In this document: positions 5,614 through 57,679 of the stretch, piece after piece | Position numbering within the stretch: the stretch's first letter is position 1 | Layout of the letters: every line of letters begins with the position of its first letter | From: a phage | Reading direction: 5' to 3' (one strand) | Sequence record: PZ445428.1 | Length of the DNA: 64,000 bases | Notes under the pieces: generated by a model | Told to the model about the DNA's origin: nothing | Databases searched by the model: none | What the model saw: the letters and a program-made list of their open reading frames with translations, nothing else | Made by a program: the position numbers and the translations under genes

Positions 5614-5637
5614 GGAGAGCTTCGGCTCTCCTTTTTT
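5614..5637 (+). terminator. Rho-independent terminator after major capsid gene
   Basis: GGAGAGC-TTCG-GCTCTCC hairpin followed by TTTTTT. Confidence 0.7.
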
Positions 5638-5651
5638 ATTGGGAAAAATAA

Positions 5652-6164
5652 ATGCAAATCATCACTGTTGAAGATTACAGACTATATGCTAACGCAAAAC
5701 GTCCTGAAATTGAAACACAAGTAGATATGATGATTAAAGCTGCCAATACGCTGATTACTAGCCTTCTAGGTATGGACGACGCGGATGCGGTAGATCAATT
5801 AATCACTACTAAACCTAGCCGTAGGAAATACTTTTTGAGTTCTCCTTCTGCTACATCAGTCACAAAGATGACTATTAATGAGAATGAAATAGCCCCGGAA
5901 CAGTATAAACTGTATCCAGATGGTGTTATTCTCCTTAAATTTAATCCACCAGAAGGGTATATGGATGTAGAATATACGCAAGGTGGTTTCAACCCAATGC
6001 CTGAAGATCTCAAGCTGGCTGCATGTCTATTAGTAGATCACTGGCATAAACAAGATTATCGTCAAGCCAAGACTATTGGTGGTGAAACAGTAACGTTTAA
6101 CAATACTAAGTCAGGTATTCCTGAGCATATTCGTACAATCATCGAAGTCTATAGGAGAGTATAA
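5652..6164 (+). CDS. Head completion / head-tail adaptor protein (putative)
   Basis: 170-aa ORF directly after capsid gene terminator; assignment by gene order only. Confidence 0.4.
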   Translation: MQIITVEDYRLYANAKRPEIETQVDMMIKAANTLITSLLGMDDADAVDQLITTKPSRRKYFLSSPSATSVTKMTINENEIAPEQYKLYPDGVILLKFNPPEGYMDVEYTQGGFNPMPEDLKLAACLLVDHWHKQDYRQAKTIGGETVTFNNTKSGIPEHIRTIIEVYRRV

Positions 6165-15072: not shown

Positions 15073-17918
15073 AGAAAATTCTTGACACAGCTAGAGAGTA
15101 TTTAAGATCACACAATAAAATAAAAACAGCGTGTCTTATTACTCTTGAGCTTCCTAGCTCTACTGGATCTAGTGCAGCTTACATATATCTAACTGATTAT
15201 TTCAGAGATGTTATGTATAATGGTATTCTATATACATCTGGTAAAGTTAAGTCTATTGCAACTCACAAACAAAACAGAGATCTTTCCATTGGTAGCCTTT
15301 CTTTTACTATTACGGGTACAGCAGAGGATGAAGTTTTAAAACTCGTTCAAAATGGTGTATCCTTCCTAGATAGATCTATATCTATTCATCAAGCTGTTAT
15401 TGATGAAGATGGTAACATTCTTCCAGTAGATCCAGATACTAATGGTCCTTTATTATACTTCCGTGGTAAGATTACTGGTGGAGGTATTAAAGATAATATT
15501 GGTACTTCAGGCATCAGTACCTCAGTAATTACATGGAATTGTTCAAACCAGTTCTATGACTTCGATAGAGTTAACGGTCGTTTTACTGATGATGCTGACC
15601 ATCGCGGATTAGAAATTGTTGCTGGTCAATTAGTTCCTTCTAATGGTGCTAAGCGTCCAGAGTATCAAGAGGATTATGGTTTCTTCCACGCTAATAAGAG
15701 TATCTCTATTCTTGCTAAGTATCAGGTGCAGGAAGAGAGATATAAACTGCAATCCAAGAAGAAATTATTTGGTCTATCAAGAAGTTATAGTCTTAAGAAG
15801 TATTATGAGACTGTAACTAAAGAAGTTGATCTTGATTTCAACCTTGCAGCTAAATTCCTTCCAGTAGTATATGGAGTTCAGAAAGTTCCTGGTATTCCAG
15901 TGTTTGCAGATACTGAACTACATAATCCAAATATTGTGTATGTAGTATACGCCTTTGCAGAAGGGGAGATTGACGGGTTCCTAGACTTCTACTTTGGCGA
16001 CGTTCCTATGATTTGTGTTGATCCAAATGATAGTAAAAACCGTACATGTTTTGGTACTAAAAAGACTGCTGGTGATACAATCCAACGTATTGCTTCTGGA
16101 TTGCCAGACTCTTCTCCTTCTATTCACGGACAGGAATATAAGTATAACGATGGTAATGGGGATATTAGGGTATGGACATTCCACGGTAAACCAGATCAAA
16201 CCGCAGCAGATGTTTTAGTAAACATTGCTAAAGAAAAAGGTTTCTATCTCCAGAACATGAATGAGAATGGCCCTGAATATTGGGATTCTCGTTATAAACT
16301 TCTAGATACTGCGTATGCTATTGTTCGTTTTACTATTAACGAAAACAGAACAGAAATTCCTGAGGTTAGTGCTGAGCTTCAAGGTAAGAAGATTAAGATC
16401 TACCATTCTGATGGTAAAGTAACTGCTGATCGTACTAGTTTAAACGGTATTTGGCAGACTCTTGACTACCTGACTTCAGATCGTTATGGTGCTAATATTA
16501 CTATTGACCAGTTTCCACTAAAACAACTAATTCAAGAGGCTGCTATTTTAGATATCATTGATGAGTCATATCAAGTATCTTGGCAACCTTATTGGAGATA
16601 CGTTGGATGGACAGATGCAATAGGTGAACATCGTCAGATAGTACAGATGAACACTATTTTAGATACTTCTGAATCTGTGTTTAAAAACGTACAAGGTTTA
16701 TTAGAATCTTTTGGTGGTGCGATAAATAACCTGTCAGGACAGTATCGTATAACTGTTGAAAAGTACTCCAATACTCCATTAGAGATTAACTTTATGGATA
16801 CTTATGGGGACTTAGAGTTGTCTGATACAACTGGTAGGAATAAGTTTAACTCTGTTCAGGCCTCTATCCTAGACCCTGCATTAAGTTGGAAAACCAACTC
16901 TATCACATTCTTTAACTCTATATTTAAAGAGCAGGATAAAGGATTAGATAAAAAGCTGCAACTATCCTTTGCAAACATTACTAACTACTACACTGCACGT
17001 AGTTTTGCTGATAGAGAACTTAAAAAGTCTCGTTACTCTCGAACTCTATCTTTCTCTCTACCATACCATTTCATTGGTATTGAACCTAACGATCCAATAG
17101 CATTTACTTATGACCGTTATGGGTGGAATAAGAAATACTTCCTAGTAGACGAGGTTGAGAACTCAAGAGAAGGCAAGATTAATATTACTCTACAAGAGTA
17201 CGGAGAAGATGTATTTATTAACTCCGAGCAGGTAGATAACAGTGGTAATGATATTCCTGATGTAAGTAATAACGTTCTGCCTCCAAGAGATTTTATTTAT
17301 ACGCCAACTCCTGGCGGTACTGTTGGAGCTATAGGTAAGAATGGTGAGTTATCTTGGCTTCCAAGTCTTACAAATAACGTTGTTTATTATTCTATTGTTC
17401 ATTCTGGCCATGCAGAACCGTATATCGTTCAGCAGTTAGAATCTAATCCAAATCTACGAATGATTCAAGAAATCATAGGAGAACCTGCTGGTTTAGCAGT
17501 ATTTGAGATTAGAGCAGTAGATATAAATGGTAGAAGAAGTTCTCCAGTAACTTTATCTGTAGAGCTTAATTCTGCTAAAAACTTAAGCGTTGTTAGTAAC
17601 TTTAGGGTAACTAATACAGCTTCAGGAGATGCATCGGAATTTGTAGGGCCAGATGTTAAATTGGCCTGGGATAGGATTCCAGAAGAGGACATTATTGATG
17701 GTATCTACTATACTCTCGAAATCTACGATAATCTAGATCGTTTATTAAGAAGTGTACGTATTGAGGATCAATATGTTTATGATTATCTACTGATATACAA
17801 TAAGGCAGACTATGCTTTGCTAAATGAAGATGCTCTTGGTATTAACAGGAAATTACGTTTCCGAATTAGAGCAGAAGGTGATAATGGCGAGCAATCTGTG
17901 GATTGGGCATCTATTTAA
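15069..17918 (+). CDS. Baseplate hub / tail-tip protein
   Basis: 949-aa ORF following distal tail protein; size and order match T5-type hub protein. Confidence 0.65.
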   Translation: MKKILDTAREYLRSHNKIKTACLITLELPSSTGSSAAYIYLTDYFRDVMYNGILYTSGKVKSIATHKQNRDLSIGSLSFTITGTAEDEVLKLVQNGVSFLDRSISIHQAVIDEDGNILPVDPDTNGPLLYFRGKITGGGIKDNIGTSGISTSVITWNCSNQFYDFDRVNGRFTDDADHRGLEIVAGQLVPSNGAKRPEYQEDYGFFHANKSISILAKYQVQEERYKLQSKKKLFGLSRSYSLKKYYETVTKEVDLDFNLAAKFLPVVYGVQKVPGIPVFADTELHNPNIVYVVYAFAEGEIDGFLDFYFGDVPMICVDPNDSKNRTCFGTKKTAGDTIQRIASGLPDSSPSIHGQEYKYNDGNGDIRVWTFHGKPDQTAADVLVNIAKEKGFYLQNMNENGPEYWDSRYKLLDTAYAIVRFTINENRTEIPEVSAELQGKKIKIYHSDGKVTADRTSLNGIWQTLDYLTSDRYGANITIDQFPLKQLIQEAAILDIIDESYQVSWQPYWRYVGWTDAIGEHRQIVQMNTILDTSESVFKNVQGLLESFGGAINNLSGQYRITVEKYSNTPLEINFMDTYGDLELSDTTGRNKFNSVQASILDPALSWKTNSITFFNSIFKEQDKGLDKKLQLSFANITNYYTARSFADRELKKSRYSRTLSFSLPYHFIGIEPNDPIAFTYDRYGWNKKYFLVDEVENSREGKINITLQEYGEDVFINSEQVDNSGNDIPDVSNNVLPPRDFIYTPTPGGTVGAIGKNGELSWLPSLTNNVVYYSIVHSGHAEPYIVQQLESNPNLRMIQEIIGEPAGLAVFEIRAVDINGRRSSPVTLSVELNSAKNLSVVSNFRVTNTASGDASEFVGPDVKLAWDRIPEEDIIDGIYYTLEIYDNLDRLLRSVRIEDQYVYDYLLIYNKADYALLNEDALGINRKLRFRIRAEGDNGEQSVDWASI

Positions 17919-20405: not shown

Positions 20406-23400
20406 TGGCGATCAGAACTAAAATTATTGTACAGCAGATTCTGAACATAGATGACACTACAACTACTGCTAGTAAGTATCCTAAGTATACAGTAGTTTTA
20501 GGTAACTCTATTAGTTCTATTACTGCTGGTGAGCTGACTGCAGCTGTGGAATCATCCGCAGCTTCAGCTGCTGCTGCTAAAGATTCTGAAATTGCAGCAA
20601 AATCATCCGAAACTAATGCTAGAGACTCAGAAAATAGAGCCGCTATCTATGCTGATTCTTCTGAAGCTTCTGCTACTCAATCAGCTACTTCTGCTACAGA
20701 ATCTGAGAGACAGGCTGAATTATCTAAGGCTAGCGCTGAAGAATCCGCTGCATCTGCTACAGAAGCTGGTACACACAAAGATGCGGCTCAGTTAGCTGCT
20801 CAAAATGCTGAGAGAAGTAGAGAACTAGCCGAACAAGCTAAAACTGCTGCTCAACAAGCCCAGGTAGCCGCGGAGACTGCTAAGACGGGAGCTGAAACAG
20901 CTAAAGAAGGAGCAGATGCTGCTGCGACAACGGCTGGAGAACATGCTGCTGCTGCTAAACAATCAGAACTAAATGCTAAAGTTTCCGAAACTAATGCTGC
21001 TGGTTCTGCTACCGAAGCTGGTGATAAAGCTATCGATGCTACTGCTGAGGCAGACCGTGCTAAAGCAGAAGCCGATCGTGCATCCCAGGTTGTTGATGGT
21101 AAACTTGATAAAGTAGACATCTCTGGTTTTATCAAAGTTTATAAGACAAAAGCAGAAGCTGATGCGGATGTTGCAAACCGTGTTCTAGATGAAAAGATCT
21201 TAGTTTGGAATCAAACTGAGTCAAAATATGGTTGGTATAAAGTTGCAGGTACTACTAAAGCTCCTGTCCTAGAGTTAGTAGAAACTGAACAGAAACTTGT
21301 ATCAATCAATAACGTTCACGCTGATGATGCTGGTAACGTACAGATTACACTTCCAGGCGGTAACCCTTCTCTATGGTTAGGTGAAGTTACTTGGTTCCCT
21401 TATGATAAAGATTCTGGTGTTGGCTACCCTGGTGTTCTGCCTGCTGATGGACGTGAAGTACTTCGCGTAGACTATCCAGATACTTGGGAAGCTATCGAAG
21501 CTGGTCTGATCCCCTCTGTTACTGAGACTGAATGGCAGGCGGGTGCAATTCTTTACTTCTCCACTGGTGATGGTTCTACAACGTTCCGTTTACCAGATAT
21601 GATGCAAGGGCAAGCCTTCCGTGCACCAACTAAAGGCGAAGAAGATGCTGGCGTTATTAAAGATCAGATTCCTTATGTTGTGACAGTTAATGGTATCTCT
21701 CCAGATGATATAACTGGTAACGTTGAAATTGATACCTCACTACAAGGTACTGTTAATATTAATCAAGGAGGTACTGGTGCAACAACTAAAGAAGACGCCC
21801 GTATAGCCCTCGAGCTATATAGTACTACGGAAGTTGATTCTGCTTTAGCAGATAAGGCCGATATTGCTACCACGTATACTAAGATGGAAGTTGATTCTGC
21901 TTTAGCAGATAAGGCCGATATTGCTACCACGTATACTAAGATGGAAGTTGATTCTGCTTTAGCAGACGCTAAAACTCAGTCAGATACTAACTACTTATTA
22001 AAAGCAAATAACTTGAGTGATCTCGGAGACCGTACTGCTGCATGGCTTAACGTGCGACCACTTGGCTCTACTCCACTGGCGTCAGACCCTGTAAGTGACT
22101 ATGACGCCACAACTAAGCGCTGGGTGCAGAACTTAATCGGCGCAGGGACTGTAGGCCCGACAATGAACGGGGTCATGAATTATGGTGTTGGGGATTTCCA
22201 CCTACGGGATAGCAGGGCGTATATTCAACCTTATGAGGTATTATCAGACGGTCAATTGCTTAATCGTGCAGCATGGCCTGAATTGTGGGCATATGCTCAG
22301 ATGCTATCCCCTATCAGTGATGCTGAGTGGCTTAGTTCTGCGGAAAAACGTGGGCGTTATTCCACCGGTGATGGGTCAACAACCTTCCGTGTTCCAGACC
22401 GAAACGGTGTGCAGCCTGGGTCAACGACTAGTCTTTTTGGACGAGGGGATGGTGGTACTTCATCAGAGAACGGTAGGGTTTATGAAGCTGCTGCACCTAA
22501 TATATTGGGGACATTTGCAAATGATACCAGCGGAAAGGTGTGGATGCCTGCTCCAAAATCAGTAACGGGATCTTTTGGTTATGCCCCAACAACAGAAATG
22601 ACATTTTTACCTAATGATGGTTCCTTTGTAAAAGTCAATAACAATGCTACTACGACCTTTAATGCGAGATTGAGCGACGAGGTATATGGTAAATACGAAG
22701 TTAAAAATCAGATACTGCCCAAAAGTTTTGTAGGTGTTTGGGTTATTCGCGCATCCGGAGGTTTTACTGCTGCAAATACGTCATGGTCTGTGATCAATGC
22801 GGATGCTGTGGTTCCTGGAGCTAATGTTACTACTTATGGTGGTGATATGTGGTCAACATACCAAGTGGCTGGTGCTGATTATGTCAAATTAGGCTATCGT
22901 GCGAAAGTCACTATTGATGGTGCGTCTACAGGAGAAATCCGTCTAATGGATAGCAGGGTAGGGGGTACTAGCAAAACCTGGGAAATGCCTACTGTCAGTG
23001 GTACGCTTCTTAGTAGTGCGGATATAGGAACTTCAGGAGCTAAAATCCCTTTACTTAACGTTCAGAACATGTGGACAAAAACTCAGGTTTTCCAAGAATC
23101 AGGTGTTGTCACTCAATCGGTGCTGCCATCGGATGCTACTTTAAATGATCACGGCGGTCCTCATTTTGTTTCATATGTTATAACTGATAATCAAATTCGT
23201 TTAGGCGCTAAATTCTTTTCTAGTTTTGATTCTACGAATTTAAGAAGAGCCGTTGTCCAAGTCACAACAGATAACGATGCTTCCGCCCAGATATTTGCAT
23301 TTGATCAGAGAGGGGATATTTCATCTGCGAAAGGTATTGTACAGTGGAGTGGCTCTGATACCCGTATTAAGACTAACTTTGAACCTGTGCAAAGTGGGTC

Positions 23401-27756: not shown

Positions 27757-29595
27757 TTATTCTAAGTAGGAAAATCCTTCTGCATCTTTTTTGACAGTAA
27801 TCTTATGGGCTAATGGATGCGTATGCCCATGAGAAACAATGATAGAGTTCAGACTATCTTCCTCATTTAATAATTCAACGAGAGTGTCAAGCCCTTTCGT
27901 ATCAATAAAGCTAATCACTTCATCAAGGAACAGAAGATTAATGTTAACTTTACTAATAGATGTTAACAGCATACGAATCGCTAACAGTGTTGCTAGGTTA
28001 ATTCGACTTTGCTGACCAGTAGAGCAGTTCTCCATACTGGTTCTATTTCCATCATTGAAGATTACTACCTGTAATTTCGTTTCATCAAGCTCAAATCCAA
28101 GTGCGAACTTACCAGCAGTCATAATAGAAAGATATTTATTAATTAATTCTTCAAACACTTTCACACTATGCTCTAGTTTATATCCTACCAGATTTTTCAA
28201 AGCAGCAATCAGAATATCAAGATCAGCTACAGCTTCGGCTACTCCATCAAGTTTGGAAGTAATCTCAGTCATTTCTGCTTCTGCTTTCTCTATCTGTTCT
28301 AGCTTTGCTTTATACCTTGCATTGGCAACTTCAACATTTGAGTTATGCTCTTTAGCCCTTGCAACTTTGGAACGGCCATCCGCTATTTCCTGTTCAAGCT
28401 GTAGGATTTGCACCTGTAGGATTTGCACATTGAGTTCTTCAAAAGAGGAATCACTCATTGAATTTTTGAACTCGTCTCTAGCTGCTACTGCCTTATCCAA
28501 AGCATCTTTAGCTCTAGTGTACGCAGTGTACTCGAGTTGTTCTTTCTTTAATACTTCCAGTTGCGCTTCGAGTGTCTGCTTCTCTTTAAATAGAGGATCA
28601 TATTCCACTCGTGCCATATCCATAGCTTTTTGTGCAGCCGTTGTATCCAGATGAGTTCCGCAGGTAGGACATTCAGTTGCTGAAGCCTCATGCTTGAACT
28701 TCTGATAACGTTTCTTGACTTCGCCCGCACGTGAGGTAACAATCGTTAGGTCACGCGTAACATTCGAGATATCGTCGTTTTTGCACATGGGCGCGGGAAG
28801 ATTTTGATAAGGCTCGAAAGATTTTTCGGCAACTTGTACAGCTTTGTCCAAATTACGTAACTTAGTAATATTAGCTTCTTGTGCTTTAGCTAATGCCGCC
28901 TTGACTTTCGACTCAGTCAACTCTTGTGACAGTGGTTCTTCATCAAACTCAGGAACTTCAACTGGCTCCTGCAAACTTCCGAGATTGTCTTTACTATTGA
29001 GAATCTTCGTAATTACAGCCATTTGGCCTTGCAGATTACTTAATGTAGCTGCCACTTCTTTACGATCAGTCTTAATAGTTTCAGACATTTCTTTATATTG
29101 CTCTTGATTAAACAAGTTAACAAGAAATGCTTTACGTGTTGCATCAGTAGCTTTGAGGAAGTCTAGATTTGAACCAACAGATTGATAGATCAATTTGGTG
29201 AACGTTTGGAAATCTCCACCCATAATCTCTTCGATCATCTTGTACGTTTGAGTTGCTGTGTGTCCACTGACATCTTCTCCGTTCTTAATCAGTGTAACTT
29301 TAGCAGTTGATTTAACAACTTTATGCAGCTCGTACTCATCTTCATCTTTCGAGAAGTAAGCGTGCATTTCGTACTCTTTCTTCGGAGCGCTCCATGAGAA
29401 GAGGGCGTCCTTCTTGATACCACGTGAGTTCTTATTATAAAAGAGTTCCTCAAGAACAGTAGCAATAGTGGACTTCCCTAAACCATTTTCTCCGATTAAC
29501 TGAGTAACTGGGTTCTTATCGAAATGAATCACGATATCCTTACCGTAAGACATAACGTTGCTGAATTTTAGTGTCTTAATTATAATCTTTGACAT
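27757..29595 (-). CDS. SbcC/Rad50-like recombination ATPase
   Basis: Walker A ENGLGKST, long central coiled coil with CPTCG zinc-hook-like motif, C-terminal LLFLDEV Walker B. Start set to ATG at 29595 (MSKIII); track ORF begins at TTG 29625. Confidence 0.75.
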   Translation of the reverse strand: MSKIIIKTLKFSNVMSYGKDIVIHFDKNPVTQLIGENGLGKSTIATVLEELFYNKNSRGIKKDALFSWSAPKKEYEMHAYFSKDEDEYELHKVVKSTAKVTLIKNGEDVSGHTATQTYKMIEEIMGGDFQTFTKLIYQSVGSNLDFLKATDATRKAFLVNLFNQEQYKEMSETIKTDRKEVAATLSNLQGQMAVITKILNSKDNLGSLQEPVEVPEFDEEPLSQELTESKVKAALAKAQEANITKLRNLDKAVQVAEKSFEPYQNLPAPMCKNDDISNVTRDLTIVTSRAGEVKKRYQKFKHEASATECPTCGTHLDTTAAQKAMDMARVEYDPLFKEKQTLEAQLEVLKKEQLEYTAYTRAKDALDKAVAARDEFKNSMSDSSFEELNVQILQVQILQLEQEIADGRSKVARAKEHNSNVEVANARYKAKLEQIEKAEAEMTEITSKLDGVAEAVADLDILIAALKNLVGYKLEHSVKVFEELINKYLSIMTAGKFALGFELDETKLQVVIFNDGNRTSMENCSTGQQSRINLATLLAIRMLLTSISKVNINLLFLDEVISFIDTKGLDTLVELLNEEDSLNSIIVSHGHTHPLAHKITVKKDAEGFSYLE

Positions 29596-30553
29596 ATTTA
29601 GCAGCTCTAGCCAAAATTCGATCAATATCGTCTTGGGTCAGCTTTTCAACTTCACGGAAGTAAAGTTCTAGCTCGCCTAACATATCAAGATCGACAAGAT
29701 TTAATTTAGCATCTTTAGTAACTCGATGGTTAATCTTTTTATCTAAGAGATCGGAGTTCTTAACAGACTTCAACTGAACAACGTCACCAGTGACTTCATA
29801 GATTACACGGTCATAATCACTTGGTTCCATTTCTTCGCCAACCTCGATTGTCCTACGAATCAATTGAGGTAAATCACCAAGTTCAATCCATTCTACTTTT
29901 AATGTGTCGGTATCGATGATGAAACAACCATTCGTACCTTTTGTGCGTTCTCTATGGAACGATGTAGTTAACGGAGATCCTGGATAAAGAAGTTTAGTAG
30001 AACCAATAGTTTGACTATTAGTATAAGAATGTAAATCGCCAGCAATTACAGTGTCATAACAGTTATACCTCGTTAGATCAATCTCTGGTTTTACATGTGG
30101 AGGGATTTCACCACGAACATGCGTGAAACATAGTTTTGATTCAGATGGTTTCCACTTCGGTTTGTGGATTTCAGCGTAGGGAACTATATCATATTCTGGT
30201 GAACGATAGGGCTTAGTAACAACATCCCATTTTCCATTAGTTACCTTATGGATAACTCCAGCATAGTGATACAAACATGAAATTGTTTTGGTTAACATTT
30301 CATGGTTTCCGGTGAAGATCTTACCGGGATGATCAAGTCTTGACATGAATTGTTCAAGAAGTTCTACTTCTTCCGACGACGGGTCGGAATGGTCAAATAA
30401 ATCACCACCAATAATATGAAGATCACAGTTATGATTATGGAATACATCATTTAAACGGCCCCCCAACATTAAGAATCTCTTCTTTTGCCATTCTTTGGGG
30501 ATTTTGTCCTGTCCAAGTTTTATATGATGATCTGCGCTAAAGAGTATTTTCAT
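29576..30553 (-). CDS. SbcD/Mre11-like nuclease (calcineurin-type phosphoesterase)
   Basis: LFSADHH, GGDLFDH, GNHE, HVRG metallophosphatase motifs; adjacent to SbcC-like gene. Confidence 0.8.
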   Translation of the reverse strand: MKILFSADHHIKLGQDKIPKEWQKKRFLMLGGRLNDVFHNHNCDLHIIGGDLFDHSDPSSEEVELLEQFMSRLDHPGKIFTGNHEMLTKTISCLYHYAGVIHKVTNGKWDVVTKPYRSPEYDIVPYAEIHKPKWKPSESKLCFTHVRGEIPPHVKPEIDLTRYNCYDTVIAGDLHSYTNSQTIGSTKLLYPGSPLTTSFHRERTKGTNGCFIIDTDTLKVEWIELGDLPQLIRRTIEVGEEMEPSDYDRVIYEVTGDVVQLKSVKNSDLLDKKINHRVTKDAKLNLVDLDMLGELELYFREVEKLTQDDIDRILARAAKYVKDYN

Positions 30554-31074
30554 CTTTGTGCATACTTTCGCTTTATCTCTTGAATATCTATTCCTTGTTT
30601 CAGTTCACTCAAAACCTGGACTAAGATGCCCTCGAGATCTTTTCGTTCTTTACTAGCCATTATATGGTAGTGTTTTTTTTTTTTTTTATTATAATACAAA
30701 CGTAGAGTATATGTACTTGATTTGACATTGTAGCTTATATTTCCAGAATAATTTTCTATATTCTGCATGTTAGATCGGTGATCACCGTTTTTGAGGTTGT
30801 CCCATCTATTATCGTGTCGTATGCGATTATCATGGTCAATTTCTTCTGGCATCTCCCCGGTTTGCATTAACCAAATAAGTCTGTGCAACCTATATTTAGT
30901 TCCAAATACCATAGCATCTAAATATCCAGACTGCTTAGAGGGAGTTCCTACAGGTTTTCCTACACAATCTTTAGGAAGTCCATTTGACCATACTTTATAG
31001 GTTACAATACCTGTATCTGGATCATATGAGAATCTACGATGACATTCATTGTACAACTTAACTAAATCATCCAT
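30550..31074 (-). CDS. HNH homing endonuclease (HNH_3-like)
   Basis: GKPVG...GY...YRLHRL...IDHDNR...DNRWDNL motif set; paralogous to ORF 57161-57679; contains an A15 run (KKKKK). Confidence 0.6.
   Translation of the reverse strand: MDDLVKLYNECHRRFSYDPDTGIVTYKVWSNGLPKDCVGKPVGTPSKQSGYLDAMVFGTKYRLHRLIWLMQTGEMPEEIDHDNRIRHDNRWDNLKNGDHRSNMQNIENYSGNISYNVKSSTYTLRLYYNKKKKKHYHIMASKERKDLEGILVQVLSELKQGIDIQEIKRKYAQR
30673..30687 (-). repeat. Homopolymer run (T15 on plus strand, A15 on coding strand) inside HNH ORF
   Basis: 15 consecutive T at 30673-30687; encodes KKKKK in the minus-strand ORF. Confidence 0.9.
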
Positions 31075-31080
31075 AAGTTA

Positions 31081-31106
31081 AAAATAAAGGGGCATGAAGC
31101 CCCTTT
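31081..31106 (-). terminator. Rho-independent terminator
   Basis: Minus strand GGGGC-TTCAT-GCCCC hairpin followed by TTTATTTTT. Confidence 0.6.
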
Positions 31107-31111
31107 GGTTA

Positions 31112-31885
31112 TTAGTCGTCCAGATCGCTAGCAGCTTCTGCATCGATACCTTTCTGGGAACCAGCTTCGGAACCACCCTTAGCATCGCCACCTTCCTGCT
31201 TCTCACGTCCTTCCATGAAGGCATCTACTGCTTCTTTCTGTTCTTCGTAAGACGGAACCGGATAGGTTTCTTCCAGAGAAGGAACTTTCTCGAACTTCAG
31301 GAAATCGCCATTTTCATCGCTCAGTGCTTCACCGAGGATATCTACATCAGCAGCGTGTAACTTAGACTCAGCACTGTTAGGATCTTTCAGTTTCATCTGG
31401 AACTGCATTGCTGCAATCTGTTGTACATCGTACTCAGTTTCGAAGCCTTTACCTTTCTTCTCGATAGAGATATCGATATCGAACGGATCGGATAGTTCAA
31501 GCTGTTTCATGATAGACTTGATGCCTTTCAGGATAGTAGCTTTAACTTCCATTACTTTCAGTTTGTTATCAGAACGGTCGATAACGAAAGCGATGTAGTT
31601 CTTCTTAGGTTTCAGCGGAACACGATTACCCTCTTTGTCCAGATCTTTCTCGAAGAAGCCCATTTCATGGATCGGGTCAGCTTTACCACGAACAAAGCTC
31701 TCTTTAGTACGGTTGAAACGCAGGCACTCAAACGGAGCTGCATTACCATCTTTGTTAGTCAGCCAGTAGACATAACGCGGAAGAACACCAGAAACGATAC
31801 GAACACGAGTGATACCGTTGTTGAATTTCAGGAAGTCGATTTTATCGTTAGAACCGCCAGTAGTTTCGCCCCAAGACTTAGCCAT
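31112..31885 (-). CDS. Hypothetical protein with acidic C-terminal tail
   Basis: 257 aa, GAGGAA RBS, C-terminus ...GGDAKGGSEAGSQKGIDAEAASDLDD; an ssDNA-binding role is speculation. Confidence 0.3.
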   Translation of the reverse strand: MAKSWGETTGGSNDKIDFLKFNNGITRVRIVSGVLPRYVYWLTNKDGNAAPFECLRFNRTKESFVRGKADPIHEMGFFEKDLDKEGNRVPLKPKKNYIAFVIDRSDNKLKVMEVKATILKGIKSIMKQLELSDPFDIDISIEKKGKGFETEYDVQQIAAMQFQMKLKDPNSAESKLHAADVDILGEALSDENGDFLKFEKVPSLEETYPVPSYEEQKEAVDAFMEGREKQEGGDAKGGSEAGSQKGIDAEAASDLDD

Positions 31886-32162
31886 ATTTTATTTCCTCAA
31901 TAAATGTTAATTTCGATTTGTTAATTGCGATTAGTGGGTTAGTGTCGATTACAGAACGTGGTATCCATATCGGAACATATTGCATGTCCAAACTCGGATC
32001 GTTTGTAAACTTGTATTCGGCATAATTTCGTAGACTTAAAATTCCTAGATATTCTGCCAGTTGTCTATTAGACAGTTTGCGTGGATTATCAACTATCGTT
32101 GATTCATTCAAAATGAATGAGGAGCCGACCAGCAATTGGTGAGCATCAGGCTCTGCAAGCAT
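31878..32162 (-). CDS. Hypothetical protein
   Basis: 94-aa ORF; no SD at ATG; weak. Confidence 0.25.
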   Translation of the reverse strand: MLAEPDAHQLLVGSSFILNESTIVDNPRKLSNRQLAEYLGILSLRNYAEYKFTNDPSLDMQYVPIWIPRSVIDTNPLIAINKSKLTFIEEIKYG

Positions 32163-32269
32163 TCTATTAAATAACTTAACAATCAGGTCGGAATTTCCTC
32201 TAGCTAGTAAGTATAGCTTTTCATAGTCGAAGAATTTAATTTTTGTTTTCTCCTCGAATTTATGTATAT

Positions 32270-32299
32270 ATTATACTAGATTTCGAGAGAATTTAGCAA
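32270..32299 (-). promoter_or_regulatory. Early promoter cassette (copy B of a tandem pair)
   Basis: Minus strand TTGCTA-18 nt-TATAAT then ATATACATAAATTCGAGGAG. Confidence 0.45.
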
Positions 32300-32370
32300 G
32301 TACAATTTTTATTTTTCTGCTTCGGACTTTCTTATCAATCCGAAACTTTCTCTCTCAAATTTATGTATAT

Positions 32371-32399
32371 ATTATACAATAATTATGAACTGTTGCCAA
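32371..32399 (-). promoter_or_regulatory. Early promoter cassette (copy A of a tandem pair)
   Basis: Minus strand TATAAT then ATATACATAAATTTGAGAGAG; -35 region weak (TTGGCA) and inside the 3' end of the helicase gene. Confidence 0.35.
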
Positions 32400-33735
32400 A
32401 TGCAATTTTAGCTAACTGTACTGCTTTCTCCGGAGTCATAGTAATAGTTTTCCATGCATTATTGCGATACACGGCCATACGTCCGGAAGCCTGTCTTAAA
32501 CCAGTGCCACCTTTCATAATTAGGTCTACTACTATCGGATCTAACTTCCCATCAACTATACGTTGTACACGACCTGCTAACTGTTCTATTAACGATTCGT
32601 TATTAATGAGACTTCCCATTATTAAACAAGACAGCTCGTTAAGAGAAATACCTTCGGAGAAGATACTTTGTGCAGCAGCAAGACAACATGGACCACCTTC
32701 TGCTACTTCCTTCTGGATTCGCAGACGATCATCGAGTGGAGTTGCACCAATAATCTCGTAGGTTGTAACACCTCGCTGAGACAGTGCTTCTAGTATCGTT
32801 TGTATTAGTTCTGTCCTGTCACTCACAAACAGAACCTTATGTCCCATGTTCACATACAGATGCGCCAGATTAATAATAGTCTGACGATATTCAGGGTTAG
32901 AATACACATCATTAGCACGTAAAGCCCACGGAACGTTCTGGTTTCCAGACAATTCAACCGGTACGGAGTACCTGTGGATTGTAGGAGCGACAGTATTATT
33001 AACCGGAGGGCTAAAGATCTTATATCCAAAGAAATCTTTGAACATAACCTGCAAACCATCCTTACGTTTTAACGTACCGGATAGCCCAATCTTGTAGCGG
33101 GCACAGGAAATTTCCAAGAAATTAGTAAATGTAGTTGCAACACAATGGTGAACTTCATCCACAATAACTGTTCCAAACACTTTGGACAGCTGATTAGCGT
33201 GTTTATTTACTGTTTGTATATTACTAACCACAATAGGTGGGTCAATATTATACTTTCCTGAACCAATAACTCCAGGTTCAAACCCAAACCATTTACGAAC
33301 TTCGGCCATCCACATTTCACGGATGGAAGTATTCGTACAGATTACCAGAGTTTTCTGTCCAAACTTATACGCAAGTGCTAATGCTAGGATAGTTTTACCA
33401 AATCCTGGCTTACCATTGATAATGCAGGTATCATCACACTCTTCATAAATAGGTAACTGATCTTCTTCACGCAGTTTAAAAGATGGTTCTGGAATATAAA
33501 CCGGAGCCAATGTGCGTTTATCAACCAGTTCGTACTTCACTCCCTTAGCATCTAGTAAATCCAGACGTGTAATGGGAATCCACTTAATCTCTTTAGCAAC
33601 AACACCGCTATTCTTATACATAATAGGGTATTTACTTGTCATTGTCTCGACATGGTAAGTGGTTTGCTTACTACAATAATCCCAAAGTTCATCATCGGGC
33701 TTGAAATAGGCTTTATTAGATATAACAACCTTCAT
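32383..33735 (-). CDS. SF2 DExH-box helicase
   Basis: Walker A GKPGFGKT, DEVHH box, downstream helicase C-terminal motifs; located between polymerase and SbcCD genes. Confidence 0.75.
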   Translation of the reverse strand: MKVVISNKAYFKPDDELWDYCSKQTTYHVETMTSKYPIMYKNSGVVAKEIKWIPITRLDLLDAKGVKYELVDKRTLAPVYIPEPSFKLREEDQLPIYEECDDTCIINGKPGFGKTILALALAYKFGQKTLVICTNTSIREMWMAEVRKWFGFEPGVIGSGKYNIDPPIVVSNIQTVNKHANQLSKVFGTVIVDEVHHCVATTFTNFLEISCARYKIGLSGTLKRKDGLQVMFKDFFGYKIFSPPVNNTVAPTIHRYSVPVELSGNQNVPWALRANDVYSNPEYRQTIINLAHLYVNMGHKVLFVSDRTELIQTILEALSQRGVTTYEIIGATPLDDRLRIQKEVAEGGPCCLAAAQSIFSEGISLNELSCLIMGSLINNESLIEQLAGRVQRIVDGKLDPIVVDLIMKGGTGLRQASGRMAVYRNNAWKTITMTPEKAVQLAKIAFGNSS

Positions 33736-57160: not shown

Positions 57161-57679
57161 GTGAAACCTCAATTAACAAAAGAATTTCTAGAGAAATACC
57201 TAGAACTCAGAGAAGATACACTCTATTGGAAGCCAAGAGAAACTAACAAGGGTGGATTTAACACTAGATTTGCTGGAAAACCTGTAGGAGCCGTCAATGG
57301 AAATGGCTACCTATGCTTCCGACTTAATGTGGAAGGTTATAGATGGGAGTTAAGAAATCATGTAGTAATCTTCTGTCTCTATTATGGATATTACCCTACT
57401 AAGACAGTAGATCATAAAGATACAAATAAACTTAATAACCACCCTTTAAGTCTAAGGGAATCAACCGATGCTGGTAACGCCCAAAATAGAGGAGCTGGTA
57501 AAAACAATACTCATGGGCATAAAAACCTAGAGCCTCTTAGTTCAGGAAACTGGAGGGTTAGGATAACACACAACGGTACTGTTTATAGATCTTCCGCAAT
57601 GCCTTTAGAAAAAGCTCTAGAACATAGAGATATTAAACTTAAAGAATTTCATGGTGAATACGCTAATAATGGAGAATAA
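57161..57679 (+). CDS. HNH homing endonuclease (HNH_3-like), free-standing between nrdA and nrdB
   Basis: GKPVGAVNGNGY...YRWELRNHV...VDHKDTNKLNNHPLSLRE motif set; GTG start after AAGGAGA; own promoter and terminator. Confidence 0.7.
   Translation: MKPQLTKEFLEKYLELREDTLYWKPRETNKGGFNTRFAGKPVGAVNGNGYLCFRLNVEGYRWELRNHVVIFCLYYGYYPTKTVDHKDTNKLNNHPLSLRESTDAGNAQNRGAGKNNTHGHKNLEPLSSGNWRVRITHNGTVYRSSAMPLEKALEHRDIKLKEFHGEYANNGE

Follow-up and report, generated by a model that had tools for sequence, protein, structure and literature searches.

The coding strand of a homing-endonuclease gene in Escherichia phage TrudiGerster carries a homopolymer of 13 to 15 A where six relatives carrying the gene have six, and we regard it as probable that slippage lengthened this tract in a single lineage, without adaptive value, in a selfish gene that the phage can do without, which would variably remove the C-terminal module of the enzyme and blur its expression. 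The tract belongs to a known class of feature, and we invoke no new kind of mechanism for it. An earlier note on the same DNA had offered three readings of the run, which turned out to be unequally supported: the evolved on/off switch is disfavoured, given that the tract is absent from all relatives and that the alternative frames stop after 5-7 codons, and the decaying gene and the sequencing-error hotspot are both live. That note saw neither the derived expansion of a Lys-Lys pair, nor the boundary between the nuclease and the C-terminal module, nor the ATGA fusion of the gene to the start of sbcD. The coordinates of the features discussed are collected in Table 1.

Table 1. Features discussed in the text; positions are those of the window (the whole stretch of DNA analysed, 64,000 nucleotides) unless another phage is named.
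Feature	Position	Strand	Remark
A15 homopolymer	30673..30687	-	A13 in the GenBank record of the same phage; A6 in relatives
Free-standing HNH homing-endonuclease ORF	30550..31074	-	174 aa with A15, 171 aa with A6, 135-141 aa out of frame
HNH_3 nuclease domain	30766..30894	-	residues 61-103
C-terminal module	30553..30753	-	residues 108-174; predicted beta1, beta2, Lys run, putative beta3, two helices
Out-of-frame stops	30653..30662	-	TAA 30660-30662 (3n+2), TAG 30653-30655 (3n+1)
ATGA overlap	30550..30553	-	HNH stop TGA 30550-30552 over sbcD/D12 ATG 30551-30553
SbcD/Mre11-like recombination nuclease subunit 1 (T5 D12)	29576..30553	-	original start position taken by the HNH ORF
Intrinsic terminator after the SSB (D11) gene	31086..31106	-	immediately upstream of the HNH start
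Single-stranded DNA-binding protein (SSB) gene (T5 D11)	31112..31885	-	upstream neighbour of HNH
T23, Bas31 (DaisyDussoix, MZ501058)	6117-6139		U-tail of the major-capsid terminator
A17, Bas29 (SuperGirl, MZ501105)	17662-17678		degenerate gene remnant after the lateral tail-fibre gene
A14, Bas30 (TrudiRoth, MZ501109)	16559-16572		between tRNA-Ile and tRNA-Met

On the minus strand the window holds a run of 15 A (T15 on the plus strand) exactly at 30673-30687, where the earlier note had placed it. Read codon by codon (AAT AAA AAA AAA AAA AAA CAC; N-KKKKK-H), the run makes up codons 130-134 of the 174-codon HNH_3 ORF, five AAA lysine codons in a row, in the wider context TTG TAT TAT AAT (A15) CAC TAC CAT ATA ATG. 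It had been described as lying in the middle of the ORF and is really about three quarters along it; the 40 C-terminal residues that follow it (HYHIMASKERKD...AQR) are those given before. Within the window the second-longest run of A or T has 6 bases, as has the longest other A/T run in the complete genome (MZ501108.1; 114,179 bp). Quantification of runs genome-wide revealed 23 A6, 18 T6 and zero runs of 7-12, and the first-order Markov expectation for a genome of this size is ~26 A-runs and ~15 T-runs of at least 7 (about 40) and ~0.003 runs of at least 15. The length of the tract is far beyond chance, and A/T homopolymers are strongly avoided throughout the genome of this T5-like phage, with a sharp cut-off at 6. 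A promoter and terminator scan returned no site at the tract on either strand; by eye, the coding strand shows a perfect TATAAT directly on the 5' side of the run, but a usable -35 is missing, and we rejected a promoter at this position.

The window corresponds to Escherichia phage TrudiGerster (BASEL Bas27; Demerecviridae, Epseptimavirus), which is deposited in GenBank as MZ501108.1. Alignment of window positions 1-64000 to positions 483-64480 of that record (megablast and full comparison) revealed 0 mismatches and a single 2-base gap, located at the tract, which reads A15 in the window and A13 in the GenBank record. The A13 shifts the frame of the endonuclease CDS in MZ501108.1, which is annotated as 420 nt and 139 aa; this bears out the suggestion of the earlier note that the 40 C-terminal residues may be read in different frames. 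In a collection of 15 billion proteins the 139-aa form was present, from GenBank only, and the 174-aa protein encoded with A15 was absent from every public source searched, this collection included. MZ501108.1 was derived as a consensus in Geneious from Illumina NextSeq 550 reads, with a coverage of 50-100x (PMC8594841). Position 1 of the window is the first base of the start of terL (large terminase), which is position 483 of MZ501108.1, and this terL-aligned start suggests that the window is a re-oriented, independently processed assembly of TrudiGerster rather than the GenBank record, possibly from a different sequencing platform.

The length variation is that between two consensus calls, A13 and A15, and a difference of this size is within technical uncertainty; the tract is the sole difference in 64 kb, with which a technical miscall and true heterogeneity are both compatible, and only reads could separate the two. 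Both sequence versions support that the tract is truly long (at least 13 A). For the gene models, a 2-base homopolymer call decides between incompatible products of 174 aa and 139 aa for one and the same phage. Before TrudiGerster is annotated, or is used as an "HNH-plus" or "HNH-minus" T5-like phage, the tract needs checking.

We examined the gene in which the tract lies. Residues 61-103 of the ORF match Pfam HNH_3 (PF13392; E=6.6e-11, 42.1 bits vs a cutoff of 24.8), the ORF matches phrog_99 "HNH endonuclease" (E=4.4e-34), and the best structural match of the endonuclease is I-HmuI (1u3e). The columns that are invariant among homologues (H64, D80, H81, N89, N102 and N105) are all present in the TrudiGerster protein, and outside the tract the gene appears undamaged. 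The paralogous HNH gene without a tract, to which the earlier note had pointed, does exist: a second HNH_3 endonuclease of 172 aa is encoded at 57161-57679(+), between the genes for ribonucleotide reductase alpha and beta. Its match to phrog_99 spans the whole protein, it contains no homopolymer, and its identity to the tract-bearing protein is 28% over 79 aa only.

In the structure models the tract robustly follows beta2 and precedes the helical part of the C-terminal module, so far as predicted folds can tell. To call this module an AP2-like, DNA-binding domain is reasonable, though unproven: in several distant homologues HNH_3 is followed by Pfam AP2, with an "N-G-K" turn aligned to the position of the KK pair, and one AP2-bearing distant homologue has a natural 4-residue insertion at that very position. 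The alignment behind our first structure model included such AP2-bearing homologues. An AP2 domain would be expected to form a three-stranded antiparallel sheet packed against a helix; an alignment-free AF2 model (pLDDT 64, low confidence) kept beta1, beta2 and the helices, and left the Lys run and the putative beta3 disordered. Pfam AP2 (PF00847) gave no match even at E<=10, either with the 171-aa protein or with its C-terminal 67 aa, and hhalign of the module against the AP2-positive homologues gave a probability of <1%, which is not significant. With Pfam and hhalign negative, and with an alignment-free model that lacks beta3, we rejected an assignment of the module to AP2 by sequence.

To place the tract in the history of the gene we compared relatives. 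A megablast search against phage records revealed that the HNH gene is carried by 9 of the 389 matching T5-like records. Six distinct relatives (GSP044, HMD-P4, PHB06, Baret, 3sent1 and Stp1) have this endonuclease at the identical site, and all six read AAT AAA AAA CAC (A6, KK) in a 516-nt ORF of 171 aa. The corresponding protein cluster at 90% identity comprises 30 members, and a length of 171 aa is shared by 14 of the 15 listed, the remaining one being the 139-aa form of TrudiGerster. The A6 of the relatives together with the 171-aa cluster members indicates that a KK codon pair was expanded into the tract in this lineage only; by this comparison the tract is derived (+7 to +9 bases), unique to this phage and unconserved. 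The same tract in a conserved ORF of related phages, which the earlier note had named as evidence against its proposal, did not turn up, as the relatives have A6 and not A15. A TrudiGerster-type protein with a run of 6-12, 14, 16 or 17 had no exact match in the 15-billion-protein collection, and flank-anchored patterns with a variable gap gave 0 matches in IMG/VR, JGI metagenomes and GTDB genomes. In Salmonella phage Stp1 (KY775453) the HNH orthologue at 1673-2188 bears the label "putative prohead protease", evidently in error.

Over window positions 28900-32750, the HNH gene is 96-97.5% identical to that of Tequintavirus-labelled relatives, and the flanking genes (SSB, sbcD, sbcC and helicase) are 82-89% identical, which points to a recent horizontal movement of the endonuclease across diverged T5-like lineages. 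A free-standing gene, a presence/absence polymorphism and the signature of horizontal spread are what is expected of an HNH_3 homing endonuclease, and on sequence grounds the gene appears to be a recently acquired selfish, dispensable and mobile insert, for which homing and cleavage are predicted. Across the family, 8 variable codons of the gene are amino-acid-changing and 22 are synonymous only; on the TrudiGerster branch, substitutions in the gene comprise 3 non-synonymous and 3 synonymous changes. This is a weak, non-significant hint of relaxed constraint on that branch, and 3 vs 3 changes are too few for a conclusion of relaxed selection, which we set aside.

In Epseptimaviruses that lack the HNH gene, the SSB stop codon is followed by an intrinsic terminator and then by TTTTTAACTT-ATG AGA ATA, the start of sbcD (D12), so that the empty site is precise, TTTTTAACTT-ATG(sbcD). 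The window has this terminator and this TTTTTAACTT-ATG ahead of the HNH ORF (start codon 31072-31074), and the spacing from the terminator to the HNH ATG equals that to the sbcD ATG in the HNH-less phages. The HNH ORF thus sits exactly on the ancestral sbcD start codon. At its other end the ORF reads ...CAA AGA TGA (AAATACTC) and recreates the sbcD ATG, in an overlap that is unchanged in all HNH-bearing relatives; codon 2 of sbcD reads AAA in phages that have the HNH gene and AGA in those that lack it. The frame state of the endonuclease gene might alter translation of SbcD through this ATGA overlap. The RNA fold from -88 to +43 around the sbcD ATG was not significant (z = -1.4), indicating that nothing enforces translational coupling between HNH and sbcD, and a coupling enforced by RNA structure was rejected. 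As a separate observation, an 11-bp complementarity (GTCCAGGTTTT / AAAACTTGGAC, ~30611-30621 and ~30510-30520 on the minus strand) brackets the sbcD start, with two TrudiGerster-specific substitutions in its 5' arm; it may be due to chance or to co-conversion.

Next, we simulated run lengths from 4 to 21 and recorded the frame outcome. Runs of 3n bases gave a full-length protein (171-176 aa) that ends at the ATGA overlap, runs of 3n+1 gave a product ending in ...K(n)TLPYNG*, and runs of 3n+2 gave a product ending in ...K(n)NTTI*. At out-of-frame lengths a stop follows 5-7 codons past the tract, for a total of about 134-141 aa, and these products terminate 99 and 106 nt upstream of the sbcD ATG. 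Whereas in-frame lengths add lysines, the out-of-frame states remove all of the C-terminal module beyond the tract. Since neither alternative frame yields an extended product, a dual-coding design is excluded, and with it an alternative C-terminus. Both out-of-frame stops lie at, or no more than 5 bases from, the ATG of the in-frame Met138 (30658-30660), as TAATG and ATGGCTAG; re-initiation at Met138 is conceivable, which is purely speculative.

It is established that T5-like phages transcribe with host RNA polymerase. According to published work, A/T runs mutate at very high rates during replication, cause slippage during transcription and are under negative selection within coding regions (PMC1088944), and insertions during transcription in E. 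coli grow exponentially with run length (PMC5574713). From an A11 in tssM1, the enterobacterium C. rodentium makes mRNAs whose runs comprise 10-15 A's, and ~20% of the product is frameshifted (PMC4256274); on runs of A11 or more, cell-free E. coli translation shows robust ribosome sliding, followed by out-of-frame termination (PMC4363877). Among phages, the A9 of T2 agt showed ~7e-4 mutant reads and reverts roughly 1000-fold faster than point mutations; in the same preprint, Gomez, Barrick & Waters argue that phage homopolymers of at least 6 act as contingency loci, and their census of BASEL GenBank records (Suppl. Table 13) gives Bas27 42 runs of 6 and one of 13 (bioRxiv 10.1101/2025.10.21.683753). 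A literature search on TrudiGerster/Bas27 found nothing about the tract beyond this tabulation.

From this background we infer how the tract may have arisen and what it may do. An ordinary AAA-AAA (Lys-Lys) pair would have been lengthened by slippage in the TrudiGerster lineage, and once the run had passed ~8 bases, polymerase slippage would have made its length unstable; at the present ~13-15 A, a single length would be hard to define, biologically or technically. At lengths of 3n the enzyme would be complete and carry additional lysines in a surface turn that follows beta-strand 2 of the C-terminal module; at 3n+1 or 3n+2 the product would be an HNH-only protein lacking this module, which is probably DNA-binding. 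Slippage of host RNA polymerase together with ribosome sliding on at least 11 A's would mix both outcomes at any DNA length, such that A13 or A15 alike would be expected, judging from the published work, to produce a mixture of full-length and truncated protein with a lowered full-length yield. Blurring of either state in this manner argues against a crisp on/off switch. The tract would then attenuate or inactivate a dispensable gene in a leaky and drifting manner, consistent with early decay of a homing endonuclease rather than with an evolved switch. The in-frame A15 could be taken as a hint of selection for an intact enzyme; the prior chance of an in-frame length is 1/3.

The preprint census also lists three further T5-like BASEL phages with one isolated long run each and none of 8-12 (Table 1); counting TrudiGerster, a single run of 13-23, with no run of 8-12 beside it, is present in 4 of the 9 T5-like genomes of BASEL. 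The capsid terminator equivalent to that of Bas31 lies in the window at 5614-5637(+) and consists of GGAGAGCTTCGGCTCTCC and a T6 (5632-5637), which makes the T23 of Bas31 another instance of a run of 6 greatly lengthened in one T5-like phage. The A14 of Bas30 is located inside a possible small unannotated ORF, which is in frame only at 3n lengths. These other long runs are all in non-coding or dispensable sequence, which fits a neutral "runaway" expansion under weak selection and, by extension, suggests weak selection on the TrudiGerster endonuclease. T5-like phages may show a threshold behaviour in which runs are held at 6 or fewer and any escapee expands quickly to 13-23, and this pattern of cap and jump might be a property of the T5-type replisome. 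A cut-off at 6 with rare jumps to 13-23 is a small pattern, but a testable one.

Several other explanations deserve to be weighed against slippage expansion in a decaying gene. A technical one, which we judge less likely although it carries appreciable weight, holds that the long tract is real and has one stable dominant length, and that A13 and A15 differ through a homopolymer miscall by one pipeline; no frame heterogeneity would then exist, and one of the gene models, 174 aa or 139 aa, would simply be wrong. Homopolymer miscalling typically leaves such a pattern, with the tract as the sole difference in 64,000 bases, and the consensus origin of the GenBank genome, the signs of an independent re-oriented assembly of the window, possibly on another platform, and the absence of the A15 protein from all public sources searched favour this explanation as well. 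On the other side, 13-15 A are intrinsically prone to replication slippage, such that some real heterogeneity is expected (the shorter A9 of T2 already gives ~7e-4 mutant reads), and a miscall leaves the origin and the consequences of the tract undisputed. A more radical version, in which the phage really carries the ancestral A6 and the long tract is an assembly artefact, we hold to be the least credible of all: A6 is found in all relatives and homopolymers are error-prone, but both sequence versions show at least 13 A's, an error of +7 to +9 bases is implausible in a 50-100x Illumina consensus, and dozens of runs of 6 are preserved in other T5-like BASEL genomes from this pipeline.

The remaining explanations give the tract a function. 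As an adaptive contingency locus, it would hedge between active and silent endonuclease by reversible frameshifts, and perhaps adjust SbcD levels via the ATGA overlap. The tract is indeed a coding repeat whose unit changes shift the frame, two frame states are on record for one phage, the ORF is positioned for translational coupling to sbcD, and the preprint that treats phage homopolymers of at least 6 as contingency loci includes the TrudiGerster 13-mer in its BASEL census. A contingency locus is also expected to be kept across lineages, but all relatives of the gene have A6 and the databases hold no expanded variants; moreover, no fluctuating selection is known to act on a homing endonuclease, either state would be leaky through polymerase slippage and ribosome sliding at 11 or more A's, the other long runs of T5-like phages in non-coding or junk sequence speak for neutral expansion, and no significant structure near the sbcD start would enforce coupling. 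We consider such a locus improbable, and see only a slim chance for a true fast-switching locus that toggles between a targeted and an HNH-only endonuclease and maybe tunes translation of the SbcCD-like nuclease. Programmed transcriptional slippage or recoding, with the full-length and the HNH-only form as two useful products in the manner of Thermus thermophilus dnaX or C. rodentium tssM, is in our view very improbable. A sense-strand run of A15 exceeds the at least 9 bases expected of programmed sites and is well above the 9-11 A that are efficient in those systems, and the stops just downstream in both other frames would define a short product; however, the slippery run is not conserved among orthologues, the A6 of which is too short for efficient slippage, nothing indicates that the truncated form is useful, and the tract differs in length between records, unlike fixed programmed sites.

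Comparison with known systems places the tract further. Free-standing phage HNH homing endonucleases (I-HmuI, 1u3e; many in T5-like phages) resemble the gene in their HNH_3 domain, in polymorphism at a precise site and in conservation above that of the flanks. Homing endonuclease genes are said to pass through a cycle of invasion, degeneration and loss, reportedly set out by Goddard and Burt in 1999, and a frameshift-prone lesion would fit the degeneration phase; degeneration normally proceeds through point mutations or deletions, whereas here a homopolymer has expanded in an otherwise intact gene. Hypermutable poly-G tracts have reportedly been described by Sorensen and colleagues (2021) in receptor-binding genes of Campylobacter phages. 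There too a phage homopolymer shifts a coding frame and creates population heterogeneity, but those tracts are poly-G, are conserved across related phages, lie in host-range genes and were shown to be adaptive.

The A9 of T2 agt is also a coding poly-A of a coliphage in which +/-1 slippage toggles the frame, but with 9 bases it is short, and a selective trade-off (TgvAB vs McrBC) has been demonstrated for it; the TrudiGerster tract has 13-15 A, is found in one phage only and lies in a selfish gene with no known trade-off. The preprint census counts it as the single 13-mer of Bas27, where it was tabulated and not examined. With the A11 of C. rodentium tssM1 (PMC4256274) and the A9 of Thermus thermophilus dnaX (PMC1088944) the tract shares a long sense-strand A run and nearby out-of-frame stops, and by analogy a bacterial multisubunit RNA polymerase is expected to produce mRNAs with mixed numbers of A, and full-length as well as truncated protein. 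Those sites have a fixed length and are functionally required; the TrudiGerster tract, in contrast, is unconserved and of varying or uncertain length, and its slippage is deduced rather than observed. The five AAA codons (A15) likewise exceed the A11 sliding threshold of Koutmou et al. 2015 (PMC4363877), from which less full-length protein is predicted for the TrudiGerster gene, the published effect having been obtained with reporter constructs.

The tract is a clean natural case in which a 6-base run has grown to 13-15 inside a homing-endonuclease gene and for which the ancestor, the empty site and the flanks are known. It offers a convenient template for replication slippage, transcription slippage and ribosome sliding during infection, and could serve to test whether homing endonucleases decay through such lesions. 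Elsewhere in the window, in the lateral tail-fibre gene, a BLAST self-match revealed an 81-nt stretch repeated at a 57-nt offset (21829-21966, plus strand), which amounts to a tandem repeat of 19 codons.
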